Source: Candidatus Marinacidobacterales bacterium (GTDB lineage Bacteria; Acidobacteriota; Vicinamibacteria; Marinacidobacterales; DATDRI01). From it: a stretch of 64,000 bases of DNA. The position numbers and the translations under genes were made by a program. Shown here piece by piece: positions 54,305 through 64,000 of the stretch (positions are counted from its first letter, which is position 1; every line of letters starts with the position of its first letter). Below the pieces are notes generated by a model that saw nothing but the letters and a program-made list of their open reading frames with translations, searched no databases and was not told the origin of the DNA. The stretch is from positions 5,504,001-5,568,000 of the forward strand of contig CBDCNP010000002.1 in NCBI GenBank assembly GCA_965219415.1, read 5' to 3'.

Positions 54305-54650
54305 GTATTTTGACCAGACGCCGGCGTCGGCTCTACTCAGGGGTAGTAGAGGTGTAATCTGGTGCGAAGTCCGGCAGCCGTTCCGAGCAGATCGGACTCA
54401 AGCAGCGCGTCGAGTGTAATGATAATGGAGACCACCGACCTTTGGAATGGCACTCACTTTGCCCATTGCTGGCGACTCTACGCGGCGAGGCTCGGGCGCG
54501 TCCTTCTCAAGCGACAAATGAGTCCGGCACGAATGATAGTAGTCGACGTATTTGCGTAGGATTCGCCTCAGGTGCTGCTCGTCGAGGACGATCACATGGT
54601 CAAGACACTCACGTCGAATGGAGCCGATCATCCTTTCGACTAATGGATTC
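54305..54650 (-). pseudogene. rve integrase 3' fragment
   Basis: [36 protein letters not shown]. Confidence 0.75.
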
Positions 54651-54727
54651 TGTCACGGGGAGCGCGGTGCGGTAAGGACTGCTCGTCGTGCCGAAGCGTC
54701 GGGAAGGACGGCTTGCTGTCGGAGGAA

Positions 54728-55152
54728 CTAGCCCTTCACGCAGACGGTCTGCTTGAGCCGGTGGACGATCCCTTACGAGGTCGCTCTGTGCCTCCATCAC
54801 GGCGTCGATGTCCTTATAGGCTCCGGGAGTCTCGTCGAGAACCCTCACGTCCTTGCGGCACTCGACCCCGGCTGTCGCCGCGGCGTGATCGTCTAGAGTG
54901 AAGCGCTTCTTGGCTTCGTTGCGGGACATGACGCGCCCGGCACCGTGACTGCACGACTCGAAGCTCTCACGGTTTCCTTTCCCCCGGACGATATAGGAGC
55001 GCGCCCCCATGCTTCCGGGAATGATGCCCAGGTCGCCCCGCCCAGCCCGCACCCTTCCGCGTGACGAAAACCTCCGACCCGTAGTGCTGCTCCTTCGCGA
55101 CGTAGTTGTGGTGACAATTGACGACTTCTTTCTTGGGTCGAAACGCGGGCAC
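54728..55152 (-). pseudogene. rtcB: RtcB RNA ligase, C-terminal fragment (frameshifted)
   Basis: NCHHNY, TRKGA, IIPGSMG, SCSHGAGR, DETPGAYKDID, VCVKG*. Confidence 0.88.
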
Positions 55153-55154
55153 GA

Positions 55155-55638
55155 AGGATCGCCCACGAGCTGCTCGTCAAGCTTGGCGTCCGCGTCTCGC
55201 CGCGCACCGTTCGGAAGTACATACCCATTCGAGATGATGGCAGCCCGGACCGGCGCAATGCGTCGCATCGCTGGGCGACATTCGTGCGGAATCACGCAAA
55301 AGCGGTCGTCGCTGCGTATTTTTTTAACGTAGTCACCGTCAGCTTTCGCGTGCTTTAGGTCTTCGTCATCATGGAAATCGGCACCCGCAAGATGCTTCAC
55401 TTCAACGTGACGGCGCATCCGACCGCGGAGTGGACGCTGCAACAGTTCCGGGAGGCGATTGGGTGCGAGCACGACTATCGATTCGTCATCGTGGACCGCG
55501 ATGACAAGTTCTCAGCAGACCTCCGCCGCTCCGTCCGGGGGAGGGTGTTCGGCCGTTGAGGACGCCGCGCAGAGCACCGCAGGCAAATGCCTATTGTGAG
55601 AGACTCATCGGCACCACACGCCGGGAGTGCTTGGATCA
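55155..55638 (+). pseudogene. rve integrase middle fragment
   Basis: RIAHEL..LG.RVSPRTVRKY, WATFVRNHA, NVTAHPTAEWTLQQ, DRDDKFS. Confidence 0.7.
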
Positions 55639-56692: not shown

Positions 56693-57951
56693 TGAAGTGA
56701 CCCCGCTTTCGTGGACAGGTTAAGAGTTAGGGATCAAGCGTCGCGATAGTACCTCCTTTCGAATTGGATAGGCGAGCAATAGTCGATGGCGGAGTGTCGT
56801 CGTCGCGGGTTGTACCAGCCTTCGATGAAATCGAAGGTCGCCATGCGCGCCTCAGCGTGGTAGCGAAACGACCGGCGCTCGATCAGCTCGCACTCGAGCG
56901 TCGCGAAGAAGCTCTCGCACATCGCATTGTCGTAACAGTCCCCGACCGAACCCATCGACGGTCGCACCCCGGCCTCCCGGCATCGCTGGCCGAACGCTAG
57001 TGACGTGTACTGCGTGCCCTGGTCCGAGTGATGGATGACGTCGCCGGGCTTGCGTTGGAACAGCGCCATGTCGAGGGCGCTCAAGACGAGCGACGTCCGC
57101 AGGTGGGTAGCCATTGCCCATCCGACGATGCGTCGGCTGAAGGCGTCCAGCACGACGGCGAGGAACAAGAAGCCCGACCACGTGGGCACGTAGGTGATAT
57201 CGGCGACCCACAGGCGGTCGGGCCGGTCCACCTCGAAATTCCTGTCGACGAGATCGGGGGCGGGACGGGCGTCGTCACAGCGAATCGTAGTGTGCGCCCT
57301 CTTGCGCCGGTGAACACCTTGAATGCCAGCCTCGCGCATCAGCCGCGCTACACGCTTGCGTGAAGACGTGGAGCTCGTGTGTCTCTCGTAGCTCGTGGAG
57401 GATCCTCGGCGCGCCGTACGTGCTCCGCGACGCGGTGTGAATCGCCCGGATCTTCTCAAGCAACTCCGCATCCGACACCGCGCGGGCCGACGGGGCACGC
57501 TCAAGCCACGCATAGTAGCCGCTGGCGGAGACGTCCAGCAGTCGGCACATCGTGGCAACCGGTAGTGAATCCTGGTTCGCCCTCACGAATCGGAAGGCTT
57601 CGGTGGTACCGACTCGGTCTCCCGAGCGAACCAGGCCGCGGCTTTTGAGAGGATCTCCCGCTCCAACCGTAGTTGACGGTTCTCCCGTCGCAGGCGGCGG
57701 AGCTCCGCACGCTCCTCACTCGTCAGACCGTCCTGCCTGCGACCCTCGTCGAGATCCGCCTGGTTCACCCAGTTCCGGATCGTCTGGCCCGAGGGCTCAA
57801 ACTCTCGCGCCAGCTCTTCGGAGCCGCGGCCCGCTCGCACCAGCTCTACCATTTGGCGCCGGAACTCGGCCGCGTATCTGTTTCCCTGCTTTGACATCGT
57901 GGACTCCTGTCTCCCAAAGGATTAGGTGTCCACGAAAGCGGGTCAAGTCCA
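56693..57951 (-). mobile_element. IS3 type 1, copy 2 (+1 frameshift in orfB), lying inside an A-type end
   Basis: Near-identical to 8851-10108; flanks 56641-56692 and 57952-58003 are the two halves of an A long IR. Confidence 0.93.
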
Positions 57952-58079: not shown

Positions 58080-59132
58080 ATGACCAAACGAATGCTAATT
58101 CAGTCTCTTGGTGGGGTGATTCTGGCGGGGCTTGCCTTCTCACAGGAATCGGGGGCGTGGAGTGATCGGCCGTATTTCCATACGTTTTCCATTGCAGCCA
58201 TCGATCCGGAGACCGGGGAGTCCGGTGTTGCGGTCACAACGAGAGTGCCGTGCGTGGGAAACGCGGTTCCCTGGGTACGGGCCGGAGTGGGCGCGGTCGC
58301 CACCCAAGCTTTCACACGGGTCGAGTACGGCGTCGAGCTTCTCGATGCGCTTGAGGGTGGCAGGAGCGCAGAGGAAGCGTTGGCCGAGCTGGTTGCGGCG
58401 GATGACAAGGCCTCCGAACGGCAGGTCGGGGTGATTGGCCTGAAAGGCGGAAGCGCTCAACACACGGGTGACGATGCCTACGCTTGGGCGGGGCACCGAT
58501 CAGGTCCGAACTATGTTGCGCAGGGAAACTTACTGGTTGGGCCGGCAGTTCTGGAAGCGGTGGCCGCGTCGTTCGAGAGCACAAAGGGAAGCCACAGTCA
58601 TCTTGCGGATCGTTTGATCGAAGCGGTGGCCGCCGGTCAGGCCAAAGGAGGTGATGCTCGAAAGGGTCGCCTACAGTCGGCGGCCGTCGTCGTTGCCGAT
58701 CCGAGACCGGACCGTGCGCGGCGGCCCGACGGACAGACCGTCAACATTAACGTCTGCGAACATCCGGAGCCAGTTGCTGAGCTGCGCCGCATCTATGAAT
58801 CCATTTCCGGTACCCTCGGCTATCGGACTCTCCAGCAATTCTCGGGAAACGACATCTGGCAGCTCAAGCTAATCCTCCATGCCCTCGGCCACTATCGCGC
58901 CAACGAGAAAACGCTGGAACGTGGGGACGACGCCAATGTTTATACGCTTGAGGCGGTGACGGCAGTCGACGCGTTTCGCGCGTCGGAGGGACTCTCCACA
59001 CCCGCCCTCCGCTCGCCGCCCGGGCTCGTGGACCGAGAAACCGTCGAGCGACTGTGGGCAGCACTGGAACGCTCGGGTAAGGCCGAAGCGGTGCGCGCGC
59101 TGTTTCTGGAGCTAACGGGGCTCCGTCGCTAG
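58080..59132 (+). CDS. Exported DUF1028 (Ntn-hydrolase-like) protein
   Basis: Signal peptide; HTFSIAA.DP.TGE.GVAV, GVGAVATQA, AQGNLL, GGDARKGRLQSAA. Confidence 0.88.
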   Translation: MTKRMLIQSLGGVILAGLAFSQESGAWSDRPYFHTFSIAAIDPETGESGVAVTTRVPCVGNAVPWVRAGVGAVATQAFTRVEYGVELLDALEGGRSAEEALAELVAADDKASERQVGVIGLKGGSAQHTGDDAYAWAGHRSGPNYVAQGNLLVGPAVLEAVAASFESTKGSHSHLADRLIEAVAAGQAKGGDARKGRLQSAAVVVADPRPDRARRPDGQTVNINVCEHPEPVAELRRIYESISGTLGYRTLQQFSGNDIWQLKLILHALGHYRANEKTLERGDDANVYTLEAVTAVDAFRASEGLSTPALRSPPGLVDRETVERLWAALERSGKAEAVRALFLELTGLRR

Positions 59133-59133
59133 G

Positions 59134-59580
59134 TTATTTATCCGTGCGCCCCGAACTTGATTGGTCTCCGGTCTGCCGGCACCATGCCGGCATGATTTCG
59201 TCGTTGGTTCCCGCTCGCCTGACGGTCCTAGCTTCTCGCGGGGAACAACGCCTTCTTTCTCCAGCACGTTATTGCGTCGGTGGCCCTGCAGCGACAGAGT
59301 GCAGAACCTCCACCGAGGCGAACACGAGTTCGCAGGAACTCCCTCACATGGCCCCGTCAATACGCGATCTTCTTTTTTCCGTGTCACAACCTCTCAACCG
59401 GCAAGTGTTTCTCCACCGGTCGACCTGTGCCTTCTATTTATTCATCCGCGCGCACCGAACTTGATTTATCTCCGGTCTGCCAGCACCATGCCGACATAAT
59501 TTCGTCGTTGGTTCCCGCTCTCATCTCTGCCTTCAAGGCTCGTCGTGAGCTGGCTCTCGAGAATGTCGCTCTTCGGCAGC
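59134..59580 (+). repeat. Two D-type left-end stubs, the second with an rve N-terminus
   Basis: D end at 59425, then ISSLVPALISAFKARRELALENVALRQQ. Confidence 0.65.
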
Positions 59581-59645
59581 AAAGAAGGGCCGAGTGAGTT
59601 CCTCCATTCGAATTCTGAACGGCGCCGACTTAGAATCCAGTTGCC

Positions 59646-62093
59646 GTGGCCGAGAAACTCCACTCAGACGTGCTCGAACGCCTCCAGCAGGATGTCGTCC
59701 TGTCCGAGACGGCAAGAGAGCTCGTGCTCGCGGCGCTCCTCGGCGAGGTCGAGGTATGCCTCGGCGGCAAAACGCCGGCCGCGCCCGCCACCGAATCCGC
59801 TGAACCGGAAGATCCCGCTCGCGCGTACATCGACGCCGTGCGCGTTCAAGGTTTTCGCGGTATCGGACCGAGCGCTGAGCTTGCTCTCTCCCCTGGTCCA
59901 GGGCTGACGCTGGTCGTCGGACGCAACGGCTCGGGCAAATCGAGCTTCGCGGAGGCGCTCGAGCTCCTCCTTACCGGCGACAATCAGAGATGGAGCTCCA
60001 AGCGCAGTAGGGTCTGGAAGGACGGCTGGCGCAATCTCCATGAACCCGACGTAACGAAGATCGAGGCAACGCTTCTCATTGACGGCCAGGCGGGCCCCTA
60101 CGTCGCGTCACGGCAATGGAGTGCGAACGACACGCTCGAGGCTGGCGAGGCCACGATCACCCACGCCCATAAGAAAAAGACCGGTCCCCTCTCTCAGCTC
60201 GGTTGGGCAACACCGCTCGCCACTTACCGTCCTTTTCTTTCCTATAACGAGCTCGGCTCCATGCTCGAAGAGGGCCCCTCAAAGCTCTTCGATGCCCTCG
60301 CCTCGATTCTCGGGCTCGAAGAGCTCGTTGCCGCCGCCGACGCGCTCAAAGAAGCGCGCGGTTCACGAAGCAAGATCCACAAGAAGGCCAAGGACAAACT
60401 CAAAGAGCTCCGCGCCTCGCTCAAGGCGCATCCCGATGAGCGGGCGGCAAAATGCCTCGAGGCCACCAAGGGCACGAAATGGAACCTCGATGCCGTCGAA
60501 GGCCTCGTCGCGGGCGGTGCGGTCTCTGAGACAGACTCGACTGTCGCGCGGCTTCGGGAGCTCACCCAGCTTCAGGGGCCGAATCCCGAGCGCGTCTCCG
60601 AGATCGTCGCCCAGCTCCGGCAGGCGGTCCGGGATCGACAGAGTATCGCTGGAACGGATGCCGACAAAGCCCGCCGACGAGCCGAGATTCTGGACAAAGC
60701 CCTCGAGCTCCACCGCCACGACGGAGACGGCGACTGCCCCGTCTGTGGACGCTCCTCGGCACTCAACGAGGTTTGGCACTGCCAGGCCGAGGCGGAAGCC
60801 CAGGCGCTCAGAAAAGAGGCTGCCGCTGCCGAGAAAGCGCACCGCGCGCTTCGTGACGCGGAGCGGGTCGCGCAGGCGGCGGCGACACCCCTGCCTCCCT
60901 CCTTATTGATGGCCAGCGAGCTCGGCGTCGACGCCGACGCCGTCCAGCTCGCCTGGAGCGGGTGGCACCAGGCGTCGAGCTCGACGGGCGAGGAGCTCGC
61001 CAACCACCTCGAAACGCAAGCTCCCGAGCTCAATCTAGCCCTTGAGCTCTTCCGCGAGCAGGCGCAACAAAAGCTCGCCAAGCGCGAAGACCAGTGGAGA
61101 CCGATGGCCCTCTCCCTCGCCGAATGGCTTCCCGCTGCCCGCCAGATGCAGTCCGAAACCGAAACCGTCAAGCACCTGAAGGCCGCGGAAGACTGGGTCC
61201 GGACCACTACCACCGCCATCCGCAATGAGCGCTTCCAGCCCATCAAAGAGAAGGTCAAAGGTATTTGGGAGCTTTTGAGAACCCGCAGCAGCGTCGAGCT
61301 CGAAGACGTTACCTTCGAAGGCAAGGCGACGTCCCGCAAAGTGAGCCTCGACGTGACCGTCGACGGCACCGAAGGCGCCGCCCTCGGCGTCATGAGCCAG
61401 GGCGAGCTTCATTCGCTCGCGCTCGCTTTGTTTCTCCCCAGAGCGACCCTTGAGGCGAGCCCGTTCCGATTCCTCGTCATCGACGACCCGGTTCAGTCCA
61501 TGGACCCCGCTCGCGTCGACGGCCTCGCCAAAGTCCTAGGCGAGGTGGCCTTCGATCGCCAGGTCGTCGTCTTCACCCACGACGACCGCCTGCCCGATGC
61601 CGTGCGGCGCCTCGAGGTCCCCGCCACGATCGTCGAGGTCTTGCGACGAGAAGGCTCACTCGTCGAGCTCCGCAAGGTGCAAAGTCCCATGCGTCAGTAC
61701 CTGGATGACGCCTTCTCCCTCGTGAGCACCAAGGACCTGCCCAAGATCGCGCGCGAGCGCGTCGTCCCGAGCCTGTGCCGACATAGCCTCGAGGCCGCTT
61801 GTCTCGACGTCGTGCGTCGCCGTCGTCTCACGCGAGGCGACTCGCACGAATCCGTCGAGGAACTCTTCGACACCCACACGAAGCTCGTCCCGCGCCTGGC
61901 CCTCGCGCTTTTCGATGACGCGGAAAAGGCCAGCGGCGTCTACAACGGCATTAAGAACCGTTTCGGTCCGTGGCAGATCGACACCGTCAAGCTCTGCAAC
62001 GAGGGCGCCCACAAGGGCTTTCCCGGAGGCGACGCGCTTAGCTTCGTGCGCAACGTGGACAAGCTCGCAGGCAAGCTCGTGAAACTCGCATGA
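59646..62093 (+). CDS. Rad50/RloC-like ABC ATPase with zinc hook and C-terminal HEPN-like domain
   Basis: Walker A GRNGSGKS, coiled coil with CPVC, MSQGE signature, FLVIDDP, FTHD; C-terminal RHSLE..NEGAH. Confidence 0.85.
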   Translation: MAEKLHSDVLERLQQDVVLSETARELVLAALLGEVEVCLGGKTPAAPATESAEPEDPARAYIDAVRVQGFRGIGPSAELALSPGPGLTLVVGRNGSGKSSFAEALELLLTGDNQRWSSKRSRVWKDGWRNLHEPDVTKIEATLLIDGQAGPYVASRQWSANDTLEAGEATITHAHKKKTGPLSQLGWATPLATYRPFLSYNELGSMLEEGPSKLFDALASILGLEELVAAADALKEARGSRSKIHKKAKDKLKELRASLKAHPDERAAKCLEATKGTKWNLDAVEGLVAGGAVSETDSTVARLRELTQLQGPNPERVSEIVAQLRQAVRDRQSIAGTDADKARRRAEILDKALELHRHDGDGDCPVCGRSSALNEVWHCQAEAEAQALRKEAAAAEKAHRALRDAERVAQAAATPLPPSLLMASELGVDADAVQLAWSGWHQASSSTGEELANHLETQAPELNLALELFREQAQQKLAKREDQWRPMALSLAEWLPAARQMQSETETVKHLKAAEDWVRTTTTAIRNERFQPIKEKVKGIWELLRTRSSVELEDVTFEGKATSRKVSLDVTVDGTEGAALGVMSQGELHSLALALFLPRATLEASPFRFLVIDDPVQSMDPARVDGLAKVLGEVAFDRQVVVFTHDDRLPDAVRRLEVPATIVEVLRREGSLVELRKVQSPMRQYLDDAFSLVSTKDLPKIARERVVPSLCRHSLEAACLDVVRRRRLTRGDSHESVEELFDTHTKLVPRLALALFDDAEKASGVYNGIKNRFGPWQIDTVKLCNEGAHKGFPGGDALSFVRNVDKLAGKLVKLA

Positions 62094-62476
62094 TCGCCGT
62101 CACCGACTACACCCCCGAGGACCTCCTCGACGCCGCCAAAGGTCTACTTTCGCGGCCCGACGCCAACGCGAAGGGAATCTGGCCTCGTGCCGCCGCCCAT
62201 CTCTGCCGCCAGGCCCTCGAAGCCTCACTGGCGCAGTGGTGGACGAAGCGACTTCCCGGCATGGAGACCACCTCCATGCGCGCCCAGCTCGTGTGTCTTC
62301 CGACCTATCTCACGACGGACGGACTCGCCGGTCAGGTTGCCTACACCTGGTCCGGGCTGAGCAACGCGTGCCATCACCACGTCTACGAGCTGGCGCCGAG
62401 CGCCACCGAGCTAGCCGCGTGGCTGGACATTGCGACGGAGCTCGCCCATGCCGTCAAGATGTCAGAACGAGACTAG
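62090..62476 (+). CDS. Small helical HEPN-like protein coupled to the ATPase
   Basis: ATGA overlap; RQALE..NACHH motifs. Confidence 0.65.
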   Translation: MIAVTDYTPEDLLDAAKGLLSRPDANAKGIWPRAAAHLCRQALEASLAQWWTKRLPGMETTSMRAQLVCLPTYLTTDGLAGQVAYTWSGLSNACHHHVYELAPSATELAAWLDIATELAHAVKMSERD

Positions 62477-62539
62477 AGCGTTCTGGTATCGCCATCGGAA
62501 GAGAACAATCTCGACACGACGGCGTTGACGAAAGCTGAC

Positions 62540-62980
62540 ACAAAATTCGAGAGCAGACGCGAGAGCGAACCTTTCCACGTTTACAATGACGTCGGATCAC
62601 CTCATCCGTTCGTCGCGAAACGGGCAATCCTGGCGGGTCTAAACCGCGGAATCAACAACGGGTCGAATTTTTGCGGAGCACACCCCTGACTGCGGAGGCT
62701 GCGGGCAAGGGCAAGCGCGGACCCCGAACAAGAAGGGCTCGCCTTGACCGAGGATTCTAGCTTCCATTGCCAACCAAGCCTAGGCGCCTCTAATCCGCAA
62801 CGGCGCGCAGGTCATGAGTTCGTTTGTGTTTTTGGACACGACGGGCACAGCTAGCTCACGACGAGCCTTGAAGGCAGAGATGAGAGCGCGAACCAAATGA
62901 CGAAATCATGCCGGCATGGTGTCGGCAGACCGGAGACTAATCAAGTTCGGGGCGTGCGGATGAACAAATAGAAGGCACAG
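62540..62980 (-). repeat. Cluster of C, B and D termini and stubs
   Basis: TTTTTGCGGAGCACA; TTTTTGGACACGACG; GAAGGCACAG. Confidence 0.7.
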
Positions 62981-63027
62981 TCCTAATTTAGGAATGGGGA
63001 ATCTAGCAAACTAGCCAATAGCTACCC

Positions 63028-63913
63028 CGTCCTGTGCCAAAACTCAGCCCTTTTGAAATAGGCCATAAATCAGCAGCTTAGTGTCTGTGTTTGCGACCGT
63101 GCCAAGGGCCGTGGGCTTTACAATCGTCTGGCCCGAGGGTGTTATCTTCAGACCCATGATGACCTACCACGTGCAATTCCTACTGCTCGTTCTGGCTGGG
63201 TCAACCGCCAGCAGCAGGATGTGATCGACTACCAGCAAGAGGAGAACCGTGTGCTCCGAGCCGGGCTTCGGGGCAAGCGTCTCAGGCTCTCGGACGACGA
63301 CCGGCGCAGGCTCGCCGTCAAGGCCCAAGCTTTAGGCCGCGAGGCGCTGGCCCAGATTGCGTCGGTTGCCACACCCGCTACGCTCCTGCGCTGGTACCGC
63401 TGCCTCATCGCAGCCAAGTATGATGGCAGCAAGAACCGGAGCCCAGGCCGACCTCCGACGGCGAAGGACATCCGTGAGCTCATTGTGCGCGTGGCGCAGG
63501 AGAACCCGACGTGGGGATATACGCGCCTGCGGGGTGCACTCAAGAACCTCGGACATGAACTCGGACGCAACACCATCAAGAGGCTCCTCGCCGAGCACGG
63601 TATCGCGCCGGCTCCGGAGCGGGGCAAGAGCATGTTCGTGGAGCACTTTCCTCAAGGCTCATTGGGGCGCTATCGCTGCGACAGACCTGTTCACCGTCGA
63701 GGTGGTGAACCCGTTCGGGCTCGTCCGCTACCATCTCCTGTTTGTCATCGATATCGCCACTCGCTGCGTGTGCATCGGTGGGATGACCTCGGACCCAAAC
63801 GGGGAGTGGATGAAGCAGGCGGCAAGAAACCTCACGGACATGTGGGATGGTTTCCTCCTTGGCAAGCGGTACCTCATCCACGACCGGGACCCGCTATTCA
63901 CCGAGGCGGTACG
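63028..63913 (+). mobile_element. rve element, A subfamily, frameshifted and interrupted by IS3
   Basis: A end at 63028; homologous to 46680-47568. Confidence 0.85.
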
Positions 63914-64000
63914 TGGGCTTGATCCAGTTTCGTGGACACTTTCTGAAAAGGCGGATACGATGTCCACAATGGCAAAGACAACGCAGCCCCGGCGACCCCG
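63914..64000 (+). mobile_element. Left end of IS3 type 4, copy 2 (runs off window)
   Basis: Matches 47658-47743. Confidence 0.85.

Follow-up and report, generated by a model that had tools for sequence, protein, structure and literature searches.

The DNA analyzed here (the window) is a stretch of 64,000 nucleotides from a Candidatus Marinacidobacterales bacterium, and its subject is a pair of adjacent genes on the forward strand. The large gene (59646..62093, GTG start) encodes an 815-residue SMC/Rad50-like ATP-binding cassette (ABC) ATPase with a putative coiled-coil/zinc-hook insert and a C-terminal tail predicted to have a HEPN fold. The small gene (62090..62476, +, ATG start) encodes a 128-residue protein that is modeled as a free-standing HEPN-fold paralog of this tail. 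The two genes meet at GCATGATCG, where the ATG of the small gene overlaps the TGA of the large gene (ATGA), and the list of open reading frames (ORFs) bears out the exact coordinates, lengths and overlap given in a preliminary description of the locus. That description proposed a DNA-break-sensing RNase in which the small protein either completes a heterodimeric HEPN site or acts as a decoy. We conclude that the module is real and occurs widely, as a variant resembling RloC that has a second HEPN subunit of its own.

Conservation in the large protein was read from an alignment of 49 rows (alignment A2; 48 of the 120 large relatives listed plus the tail fragment from the window). The Walker A motif GRNGSGKS (residues 92-99; 59919..59942, +) is nearly invariant. 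The C-lobe motifs (61392..61580, +) are likewise nearly invariant and consist of the signature-like MSQGE (residues 583-587), the Walker B/D-loop FLVIDDPVQSMD from residue 609, which begins with the Walker B residues FLVIDD (609-614), and the FTH H-loop (643-645). A CPVC zinc-hook motif (residues 364-367; 60735..60746, +) lies in the insert between the two ATPase lobes, and its first cysteine, proline and second cysteine are each retained in at least 90% of the rows. The N terminus of the protein agrees with the family consensus. The complete set of ABC motifs and the hook named in the preliminary description are thus present and conserved, and both the ABC-ATPase motifs (Walker A, signature, Walker B/D-loop and H-loop) and the CXXC hook within an insert are features by which RloC is recognized.

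Sequence searches place the ATPase among SMC-like proteins. Pfam matches are SMC_N, AAA_23, AAA_21 and AAA_15, with a weak match to Rad50_zn_hook at residues 347-370 (E 0.0042, 17.3 bits versus a cut-off of 24.3). A profile search of solved-structure sequences returned SMC, Rad50 and RecF heads only and never matched the tail. The SMC, Rad50 and RecF matches in NCBIfam all fall far below threshold; the Rad50 models scored 22-34 bits against cut-offs of 453-1087, which places the protein outside the Rad50/SbcC family, and the Pfam scan of the flanks of 14 loci showed no Mre11/SbcD-type partner gene among the neighbors. The nearest PADLOC models are LmuB (PDLC03859; 1.9e-23, residues 214-654) and mad3 (1.3e-22), which would fit a divergent Lamassu-type system, with an LmuB-like SMC ATPase and a separate effector, or a component of MADS. 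The LmuB models stop short of the tail, the NCBIfam MAD3 model scored 19.4 bits against a cut-off of 420, and no conserved third gene of the LmuA/LmuC type stands by the pair (no neighbor cluster occurs in more than 24 of 80 loci, and no family recurs in Pfam scans of the flanks of 14 loci). These observations make a Lamassu or MADS assignment very improbable.

The tail comprises residues ~678-815 (~138 residues; 61677..62090, +). Residues 640-815 were used as a search query; of the 3052 candidates, 1004 proteins (clusters at 90% identity) match at E ≤ 1e-3, and nearly all of the 120 relatives listed are ATPases of ~800-850 residues. The RHSLE and NEGAH motifs of the preliminary description are both present. 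The R712-x3-E716 motif (RHSLE, residues 712-716; 61779..61793, +) has R712 in 49/49 rows and E716 in 47/49. The C784-N-E-G-A-H789 segment (NEGAH, residues 785-789; 61995..62012, +), at the end of the penultimate helix, has G787 in 48/49 and H789 in 47/49. Further conserved tail residues are C711, R724 and G731 (49 rows each), R705, D757 and D758 (48 each), and R726, R727, H734 and E738 (47 each). The large protein contains RxxxE at five places and such short motifs are frequent by chance; the motifs of the tail and the small protein stand above chance because they are conserved among relatives. R727-x6-H734 matches the canonical HEPN Rx4-6H pattern, but its position is after helix 2.

The small protein also belongs to a large family. 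Of the 97 candidates from a word-indexed search, 89 are relatives at E ≤ 1e-3, and 43 of these 89 were aligned (alignment A1). When 1.84 billion representatives were searched exhaustively with a profile, 1318 matched at E ≤ 1e-3 and 898 passed the stricter limit of E ≤ 1e-10; almost all of the 150 matches listed have lengths of 107-165 residues. Conservation was counted in 148 rows, consisting of the window protein and 147 of the 149 hits P0212-P0360, sized 100-170 residues, with P0029 left out. The R40-x3-E44 motif (RQALE; 62207..62221, +) has the arginine in 147/148 rows and the glutamate in 148/148. In the second conserved segment, S91-x-A-C-H95...Y99 (62360..62386, +), S91 is kept in 135 rows, A93 in 137, C94 in 120, H95 in 148 and Y99 in 138; R33 (139) and P103 (140) are the other conserved positions. 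The preliminary description had given this protein the same RxxxE and NxxxH pair as the tail. The RQALE half of the claim stands. The asparagine of NxxxH does not, since N92 is poorly kept (N in 19/148, R in 67/148), H96 is variable (H in 90/148), and the conserved histidine is H95 with a spacing of X50 from R-x3-E. A search for fused forms returned one protein of 517 residues (P0361) and one of 485 residues (P0343) in which the C-terminal part of the ATPase is joined to the small protein. P0343 was rejected as a designed fusion; its sequence looks like a frameshift read-through from the tail into the small gene.

An Arg-Glu-His set of this kind has a known role. The passages of the RloC study that treat the nuclease motif give it as Arg-X3-Glu-X36-52-His and report that mutation of any of the three residues abolishes the nuclease; the triad is R692, E696 and H737 in Geobacillus kaustophilus RloC and R320, E324 and H356 in PrrC (PMC2610378). 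The C-terminal nuclease region of RloC and PrrC is classed as HEPN in the corresponding part of the HEPN survey, which elsewhere accepts families with alternative residues in place of Rx4-6H (PMC3710099).

Structure prediction gave helical bundles for both domains. The tail model (residues 651-815) has a mean predicted local distance difference test score (pLDDT) of 88.9. Additional helices follow its second core helix and precede the third, a position at which the survey's account of the fold describes a variable insert (PMC3710099). The small-protein model has a pLDDT of 89.3 and a predicted template modeling score (pTM) of 0.84. Its best rows in a Foldseek comparison with the PDB are HEPN proteins (2q00, the sacsin HEPN 3o10, 4nqf, 1ufb and the HepT 7bxo) with TM scores of 0.6-0.7; Foldseek probabilities for the two models reach 1.00, but with E-values no better than 0.06. 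Comparison by VIA-align, which is independent of Foldseek, matched the small protein to 2hsb (Z 14.2, root mean square deviation [rmsd] 3.0, 115 residues aligned), 3mfn (Z 12.9, rmsd 3.0, 114 aligned), 3o10 (Z 11.9, rmsd 2.7, 116 aligned), 2jpu (Z 11.7, rmsd 3.6, 116 aligned), 1ufb (Z 11.4, rmsd 2.6, 110 aligned), 1wol (Z 11.4, rmsd 2.8, 108 aligned), 1wwp (Z 11.3, rmsd 3.1, 116 aligned) and 4nqf (Z 11.0, rmsd 2.8, 115 aligned), although helical bundles may reach Z ~13-14 by arrangement alone. Lower rows include HepT toxins, Csm6, LsoA, AbiA, Las1, AbiV and MtlR. The ten top rows for the tail are all HEPN-type chains, among them 1ufb (Z 9.0, rmsd 2.9, 103 aligned), 2hsb (Z 8.9, rmsd 3.4, 109 aligned), 1wol (Z 8.4, rmsd 2.9, 97 aligned) and 4nqf (Z 8.3, rmsd 3.8, 116 aligned). 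The untitled entries 1ufb, 1wwp, 2q00/2jpu and the Roquin structures are presumably of HEPN type. Because of the bundle caveat, the assignment is based on the uniformly HEPN top rows obtained with two independent models and not on Z. HEPN chains head the lists for both proteins, and the models thus place the tail and the small protein in the HEPN-type fold, as the preliminary description had expected. The ESM Atlas gave unnamed clusters only, with weak scores of 0.77-0.87 to RnlA/LsoA HEPN, DUF4145 and AAA_13 clusters that serve as leads only.

A HEPN fold can also serve purposes other than RNA cleavage. The module could be an SMC/Rad50-like DNA-maintenance or repair ATPase whose HEPN domains are non-catalytic adaptors that bind nucleic acids or nucleotides, as in MtlR and the nucleotidyltransferase-associated HEPN proteins. 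The strongest sequence matches of the module are the SMC, Rad50 and RecF heads, the structural comparison turned up MtlR and nucleotidyltransferase-linked domains, and the survey's treatment of families without Rx4-6H includes some that probably only bind ligands (PMC3710099). The invariant Arg, Glu and His residues of both domains resemble a proven catalytic triad and speak against an adaptor, as does the distribution of the module described below.

Sequence comparison relates the two HEPN domains to each other. BLASTP aligns the tail and the small protein over 42 residues around the LCRxxLEA helix (36% identity, E 0.008), and hhalign aligns the tail with the small-protein family over 110 colinear columns that cover the whole domain (E 0.0035). 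A hidden Markov model (HMM) of the small family gave 92 domain matches at E ≤ 10 in 121 large proteins. All 25 best rows map positions 5-79 of the model to one tail segment, ~residues 681-757 in full-length members, and the best independent E-value is 7.6e-5 compared to 0.17 for reversed sequences. At this level of comparison the tail and the small protein are distant paralogs, and the three alignments therefore define R705/R33, C711/C39, R712/R40 and E716/E44 as homologous positions. The histidine segments align in two ways. The hhalign register sets C94-H95...Y99 opposite C784-N785...H789, which pairs H95 with N785 and Y99 with H789. The ungapped register sets S91-x-A-C-H95 opposite N785-x-G-A-H789, and both histidines then end the penultimate helix. 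We infer that the ungapped register is the more suitable because both histidines are near-invariant. In either register there is no arginine at the canonical Rx4-6H arginine place, which is mostly occupied by cysteine in the tail.

A complex of tail residues 678-815 with the small protein was predicted with each partner given its own alignment, alongside three controls. The interaction prediction score from aligned errors (ipSAE) was 0.70, 0.72 and 0.67 for the tail and the small protein versus 0.00 for the best control. Of 157 solved complexes 116 attain the ipSAE mark, as do 2 of 215 mismatched pairs; both counts apply only approximately because own alignments were used here. The runs share at least 74% of their contacts and the partners have pLDDT values of at least 82. 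The interface involves positions 31, 38, 41-42, 49, 51-52, 55-56, 59-60, 63 and 95 of the tail fragment (1 = residue 651) and residues 7, 11-12, 15, 18-19, 30, 33-34, 37-38, 41, 62, 94-95 and 97-98 of the small protein. Most of these positions are homologous and belong to the first two helices of each protein; fragment positions 38, 55-56, 59-60 and 63 and small-protein residues 33-34, 37-38, 41 and 94-95 are both homologous and conserved. Among or next to the interface positions are the most conserved residues, which are D688, R705, V706 and the flanks of R712 in the tail and R33, A34, L38, Q41, C94 and H95 in the small protein; tail H789 is absent from the confident contacts. The predicted assembly is a pseudo-symmetric HEPN heterodimer in which both Arg-x3-Glu motifs and at least the histidine segment of the small protein are at the interface. 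The prediction with its controls supports binding of the tail to the small protein, and with it the heterodimeric pairing of the preliminary description. The predictor could have been helped by solved HEPN homodimers, and a passing score reflects likeness to such dimers as much as binding.

Pairing of this kind would suit a brake as well as a catalytic partner. The small protein would then be a HEPN mimic that sits on the dimerization face of the tail, blocks tail-tail pairing and is released or displaced on activation, which makes it an antitoxin or immunity subunit. The predicted interface is the face with which HEPN domains normally pair, the hhalign register puts Y99 (138/148) opposite the tail histidine in a protein without Rx4-6H, and translational coupling downstream of a potentially toxic gene suits toxin-antitoxin logic. 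Against the brake, R40, E44 and H95 are invariant or nearly so in 148 divergent members, and a plug is not expected to keep a triad of the RloC/PrrC type. A co-catalytic role is likelier than that of a pure inhibitor because the Arg, Glu and His are invariant in the small protein, and the brake is accordingly rated as rather unlikely, though still a rival to be taken seriously.

The two genes occur together in nearly all relatives. From the side of the small gene, the best 80 of 368 genome stretches encoding a relative were scanned, and the ATPase match ends at the start of the small gene in 78; the exceptions are one locus without the ATPase (L030) and one at a contig edge (L064). Several of the 78 paired loci are cut short by a contig end, broken into frameshifted pieces or 5'-truncated (L001, L002 and L004). 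From the side of the ATPase, the best 80 of 103 metagenome stretches were scanned, 72 of which have at least 330 bp downstream. A small-family gene directly follows the tail on the same strand in 69 of these 72, and the beginning of a small gene is still visible in 4 of the 8 loci short of downstream room. In relatives the two genes either share 4-8 nt at the junction or are separated by no more than 9 nt. The gene pair is near-obligate, and the conservation asked of it in the preliminary description is found from both sides. Three metagenome loci are unpaired (L094, L122 and L152) and two of these have a damaged tail. The third, L122, has an ATPase-HEPN gene that looks intact, with an unrelated ORF after it and no small gene, and this single locus among 72 counts against a brake.

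No third gene is conserved with the pair in the 80 loci; the neighbor clusters are seemingly lineage-bound and the ORF clustering is noisy in GC-rich loci. A Pfam scan of 76 flanking ORFs at 14 diverse loci found transposases, housekeeping enzymes, a PIN protein, kinases and many unknowns. Restriction-modification genes were found neither in these flanks nor in those of the window.

Record titles place the module in Acidobacteriota, Actinomycetota, Dormibacterota, Chloroflexia, Gemmatimonadaceae, Latescibacterota and a Saccharimonadales bin. The window's phylum was sampled evenly, and 13 of the 301 genomes in the sample carry the small gene (12 of 274 high-quality genomes); a genus can include species with the gene as well as species in which it was not found. 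The pair also occurs on two Streptomyces plasmids and in one Nocardia farcinica record of the plasmid collection. On pM92 of Streptomyces sp. M92 (L084, 2786-13351), where the pair is annotated as 'AAA family ATPase' and 'hypothetical protein', it lies between NB-ARC/TPR genes and a gene for an 1185-residue 'AAA family ATPase'. This group may be a defense cluster on the plasmid of a cultured strain. The module is accessory and mobile in character, and its distribution is patchy. Housekeeping genes are frequent in the flanks and would suit the adaptor reading outlined above, but the presence of the module in so few genomes of the phylum sample, its occurrence on plasmids and the insertion sequence (IS) flanks speak against a core maintenance role. 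An adaptor function without RNase activity or a role in defense is therefore improbable, and a putative nuclease remains the better description of the module.

The genome of the window has one copy of the pair. Its closest relatives (98-99% DNA identity) hold both full and 5'-truncated copies, and the similarity spans 59654 to ~62640-62663, which is almost exactly the pair. The truncated copies start at residue ~465 (L001) or ~692 (L002 and L004) of the large protein and have an intact small gene; a stop further breaks the tail remnant of L004, and L002 and L004 have an identical breakpoint in separate assemblies. The preliminary description had both genes staying intact in an otherwise shredded region. 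This is the case at the window locus and not in the close relatives with their truncated copies. Relics that retain the small gene while the ATPase part decays are compatible with a brake, but they are 5' truncations and so leave the 3' gene intact whatever its role. The pair was also considered as cargo of a defined transposon, and this was rejected; the flanks are different high-copy repeats and matching terminal repeats were not established.

The surroundings of the pair in the window are disrupted, as the preliminary description had it. Around the locus lie ORFs of IS3-type transposases (HTH_Tnp_1 and rve), the N-terminal piece of another transposase and a fragment of rve_3 (56734-57897, -; 63221-63998, +; 54398-54631, -). 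Upstream of the pair, with repeats in between, is an intact gene of the DUF1028 family (58080-59132, +; 350 residues, E 6.5e-65). Short repeats with ~110-370 copies in the 8.05-Mb genome are present on both flanks; the upstream repeat (window 59100-59590) matches ~110-145 genome copies and the downstream repeat (window 62700-63150) up to 370. The repeat unit at 59426-59581 had very high depth in a DNA run and is also present in RNA-library contigs, and a 95.5% copy lies directly downstream of the pair in the relative L005. An ORF next to IS pieces (window 54609-55472, -) matches the tRNA ligase RtcB in its C-terminal part only (residues 143-233 to profile positions 316-413 of 426, E 3.4e-35). 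A fragment of a tRNA-repair enzyme thus lies 4 kb from a putative tRNA nuclease, possibly by coincidence.

Scans for promoters and terminators at the locus gave nothing beyond shuffle expectation. Metatranscriptome contigs from three runs in two studies (X18, X19 and X20) cover parts of the large gene within window 59644-62624, and those of run X19 also extend over the small gene at its 3' end; differences are few, and DNA carry-over is possible. None of these contigs spans the gene junction by 31 nt on each side.

We consider it reasonably probable that the pair is a two-gene sensor-nuclease akin to RloC, whose nuclease part is formed as a heterodimer by the HEPN tail of the ATPase and its free paralog, with a DNA-linked trigger and RNA as the material cut. 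The RNase activity, its substrate and trigger, the role in defense and the co-catalytic part of the small subunit are inferred. In this scheme the product of the first gene is a Rad50/SMC-like ABC ATPase with a coiled coil, a CPxC hook and a C terminus of the PrrC/RloC HEPN type. The second gene is translationally coupled to the first and supplies a stand-alone HEPN paralog with its own Arg-x3-Glu...His set. The HEPN domains of the two proteins would pair through their first two helices, which would bring both motif sets to one interface as in composite HEPN RNase sites. Following the example of RloC, the ATPase and hook would hold the RNase silent. The ABC heads and the hook would sense a signal linked to DNA (for example breaks, foreign DNA or interference by phage), and this signal would switch the HEPN pair to its active state. 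The RNA then cut, most likely tRNA anticodon loops, would stop translation and lead to abortive infection or stress arrest. The module is probably a stress- or phage-triggered RNA-cutting system. More tentatively, it may represent a new class of heteromeric ABC-HEPN nucleases, in which a sensor carrying half an RNase has its site completed by a co-evolving paralog, and which acts as a widespread abortive-infection system in soil Acidobacteriota, Actinomycetota, Dormibacterota and others.

Several results weigh against this reading. The large protein scored 22.1 bits against a cut-off of 36 with the Pfam family AAA_13, which we take to hold RloC and PrrC, and the match is confined to the P-loop, so homology to RloC/PrrC was not found at the sequence level; PF13166 had no match in the genome of the window. 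Neither the tail nor the small protein has a match in Pfam or PADLOC even at E ≤ 10, or in NCBIfam. Neither model has a Foldseek match at E ≤ 0.001, the results for the tail are weak, and a tail Z of 9 is middling. The hhalign probability for the tail and the small family is only 9.3%, and the register of the histidines is uncertain. The spacing between R-E and His in the tail is X72, beyond the X36-52 of RloC. The canonical Rx4-6H motif is missing from the small protein, and its place in the tail reads C-N-x3-H with cysteine where arginine is expected. The binding score is a model confidence rather than a measurement. Finally, the flanks of the 14 loci, made up mostly of transposases, housekeeping genes and unknowns, have no regular defense-island context, and the context anticipated in the preliminary description is not general. 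The interpretation offered there is partly supported as a whole, and none of the outcomes it had named as contrary (no HEPN fold in either protein, motifs or pair not conserved in relatives, a match to a described system) was encountered.

Systems that join an ABC ATPase to a nuclease (RloC, PrrC, OLD, Gabija, Septu, PARIS and Lamassu) are a major theme of bacterial immunity, and how the ATPase gates the nuclease in them is still largely an open question. The module is a simple and genetically dissectable case of an ATPase-gated putative nuclease. The sensor and a 128-residue partner each carry a part of this putative nuclease, so that activation, stoichiometry and the composition of the site are accessible by mutating either half. 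The family is large (1318 small-protein and 1004 tail clusters), it is missing from the annotation libraries searched, and its members, including the Streptomyces plasmid copies, carry only the generic labels seen on pM92. The preliminary description knew of no named system with a two-HEPN layout. The absence of the tail and the small protein from Pfam, NCBIfam and PADLOC agrees with this, and literature searches found no description of such a pair of an ATPase-HEPN and a small HEPN protein, although an earlier description may exist. The section of the HEPN survey on ABC-HEPN fusions names PrrC/RloC/APECO1_4465 and ERFG_01251 and mentions no such partner (PMC3710099).

RloC of Geobacillus kaustophilus, an 804-residue anticodon nuclease that excises the wobble nucleotide, is the closest known system. 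Like the large protein, it is a single chain of ~800 residues with ABC motifs and a CXXC hook insert, and its C-terminal helical region has Arg-X3-Glu and a distal His in the published motif description (PMC2610378). The module differs in that no family match exists at the sequence level, as judged by Pfam and PADLOC, and in the spacing, which is X72 in the window tail and X50 in the window small protein compared to X36-52 in RloC. The window tail also has an additional conserved R724-727 run, H734 and D757-D758. The chief difference is the dedicated and near-obligate second gene for a free HEPN paralog, which does not appear in the RloC descriptions of that report (PMC2610378). The module would resemble RloC in its working, but membership in the RloC family is not established. 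PrrC shares the fusion of an ABC ATPase to a C-terminal nuclease with an Arg-Glu-His triad (PMC2610378). In the accounts given of it, PrrC is without the hook insert and is silenced by its type I restriction-modification locus (PMC2610378; PMC3710099), whereas the window module has a hook, a HEPN partner and no linked restriction-modification genes in the scanned loci.

The ATPase head and coiled coil are related to those of Lamassu LmuB, Gabija GajA, Septu PtuA and PARIS AriA, and a preprint on such systems describes a shared logic of ABC-ATPase sensor and nuclease effector (bioRxiv 10.1101/2024.01.29.577857). The effector of the module would be a HEPN pair and not Cap4, TOPRIM or HNH, and no LmuA or LmuC was found. 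In size and fold the small protein is like HepT of the HepT-MntA (HEPN-MNT) system and other small HEPN proteins (5yep, 7ae2, 8xdj and 2hsb). Unlike HepT-MntA, it has neither Rx4-6H nor a nucleotidyltransferase, and its partner is a HEPN paralog fused to an ATPase. In Cas13 and in Las1 and Csm6, two HEPN units must join to form an active RNase site. These units belong to one chain or to homodimers, whereas those of the window are an ATPase-fused domain and a separately encoded paralog, and their control is presumably by an SMC-like sensor instead of guide RNA or cyclic oligoadenylate.

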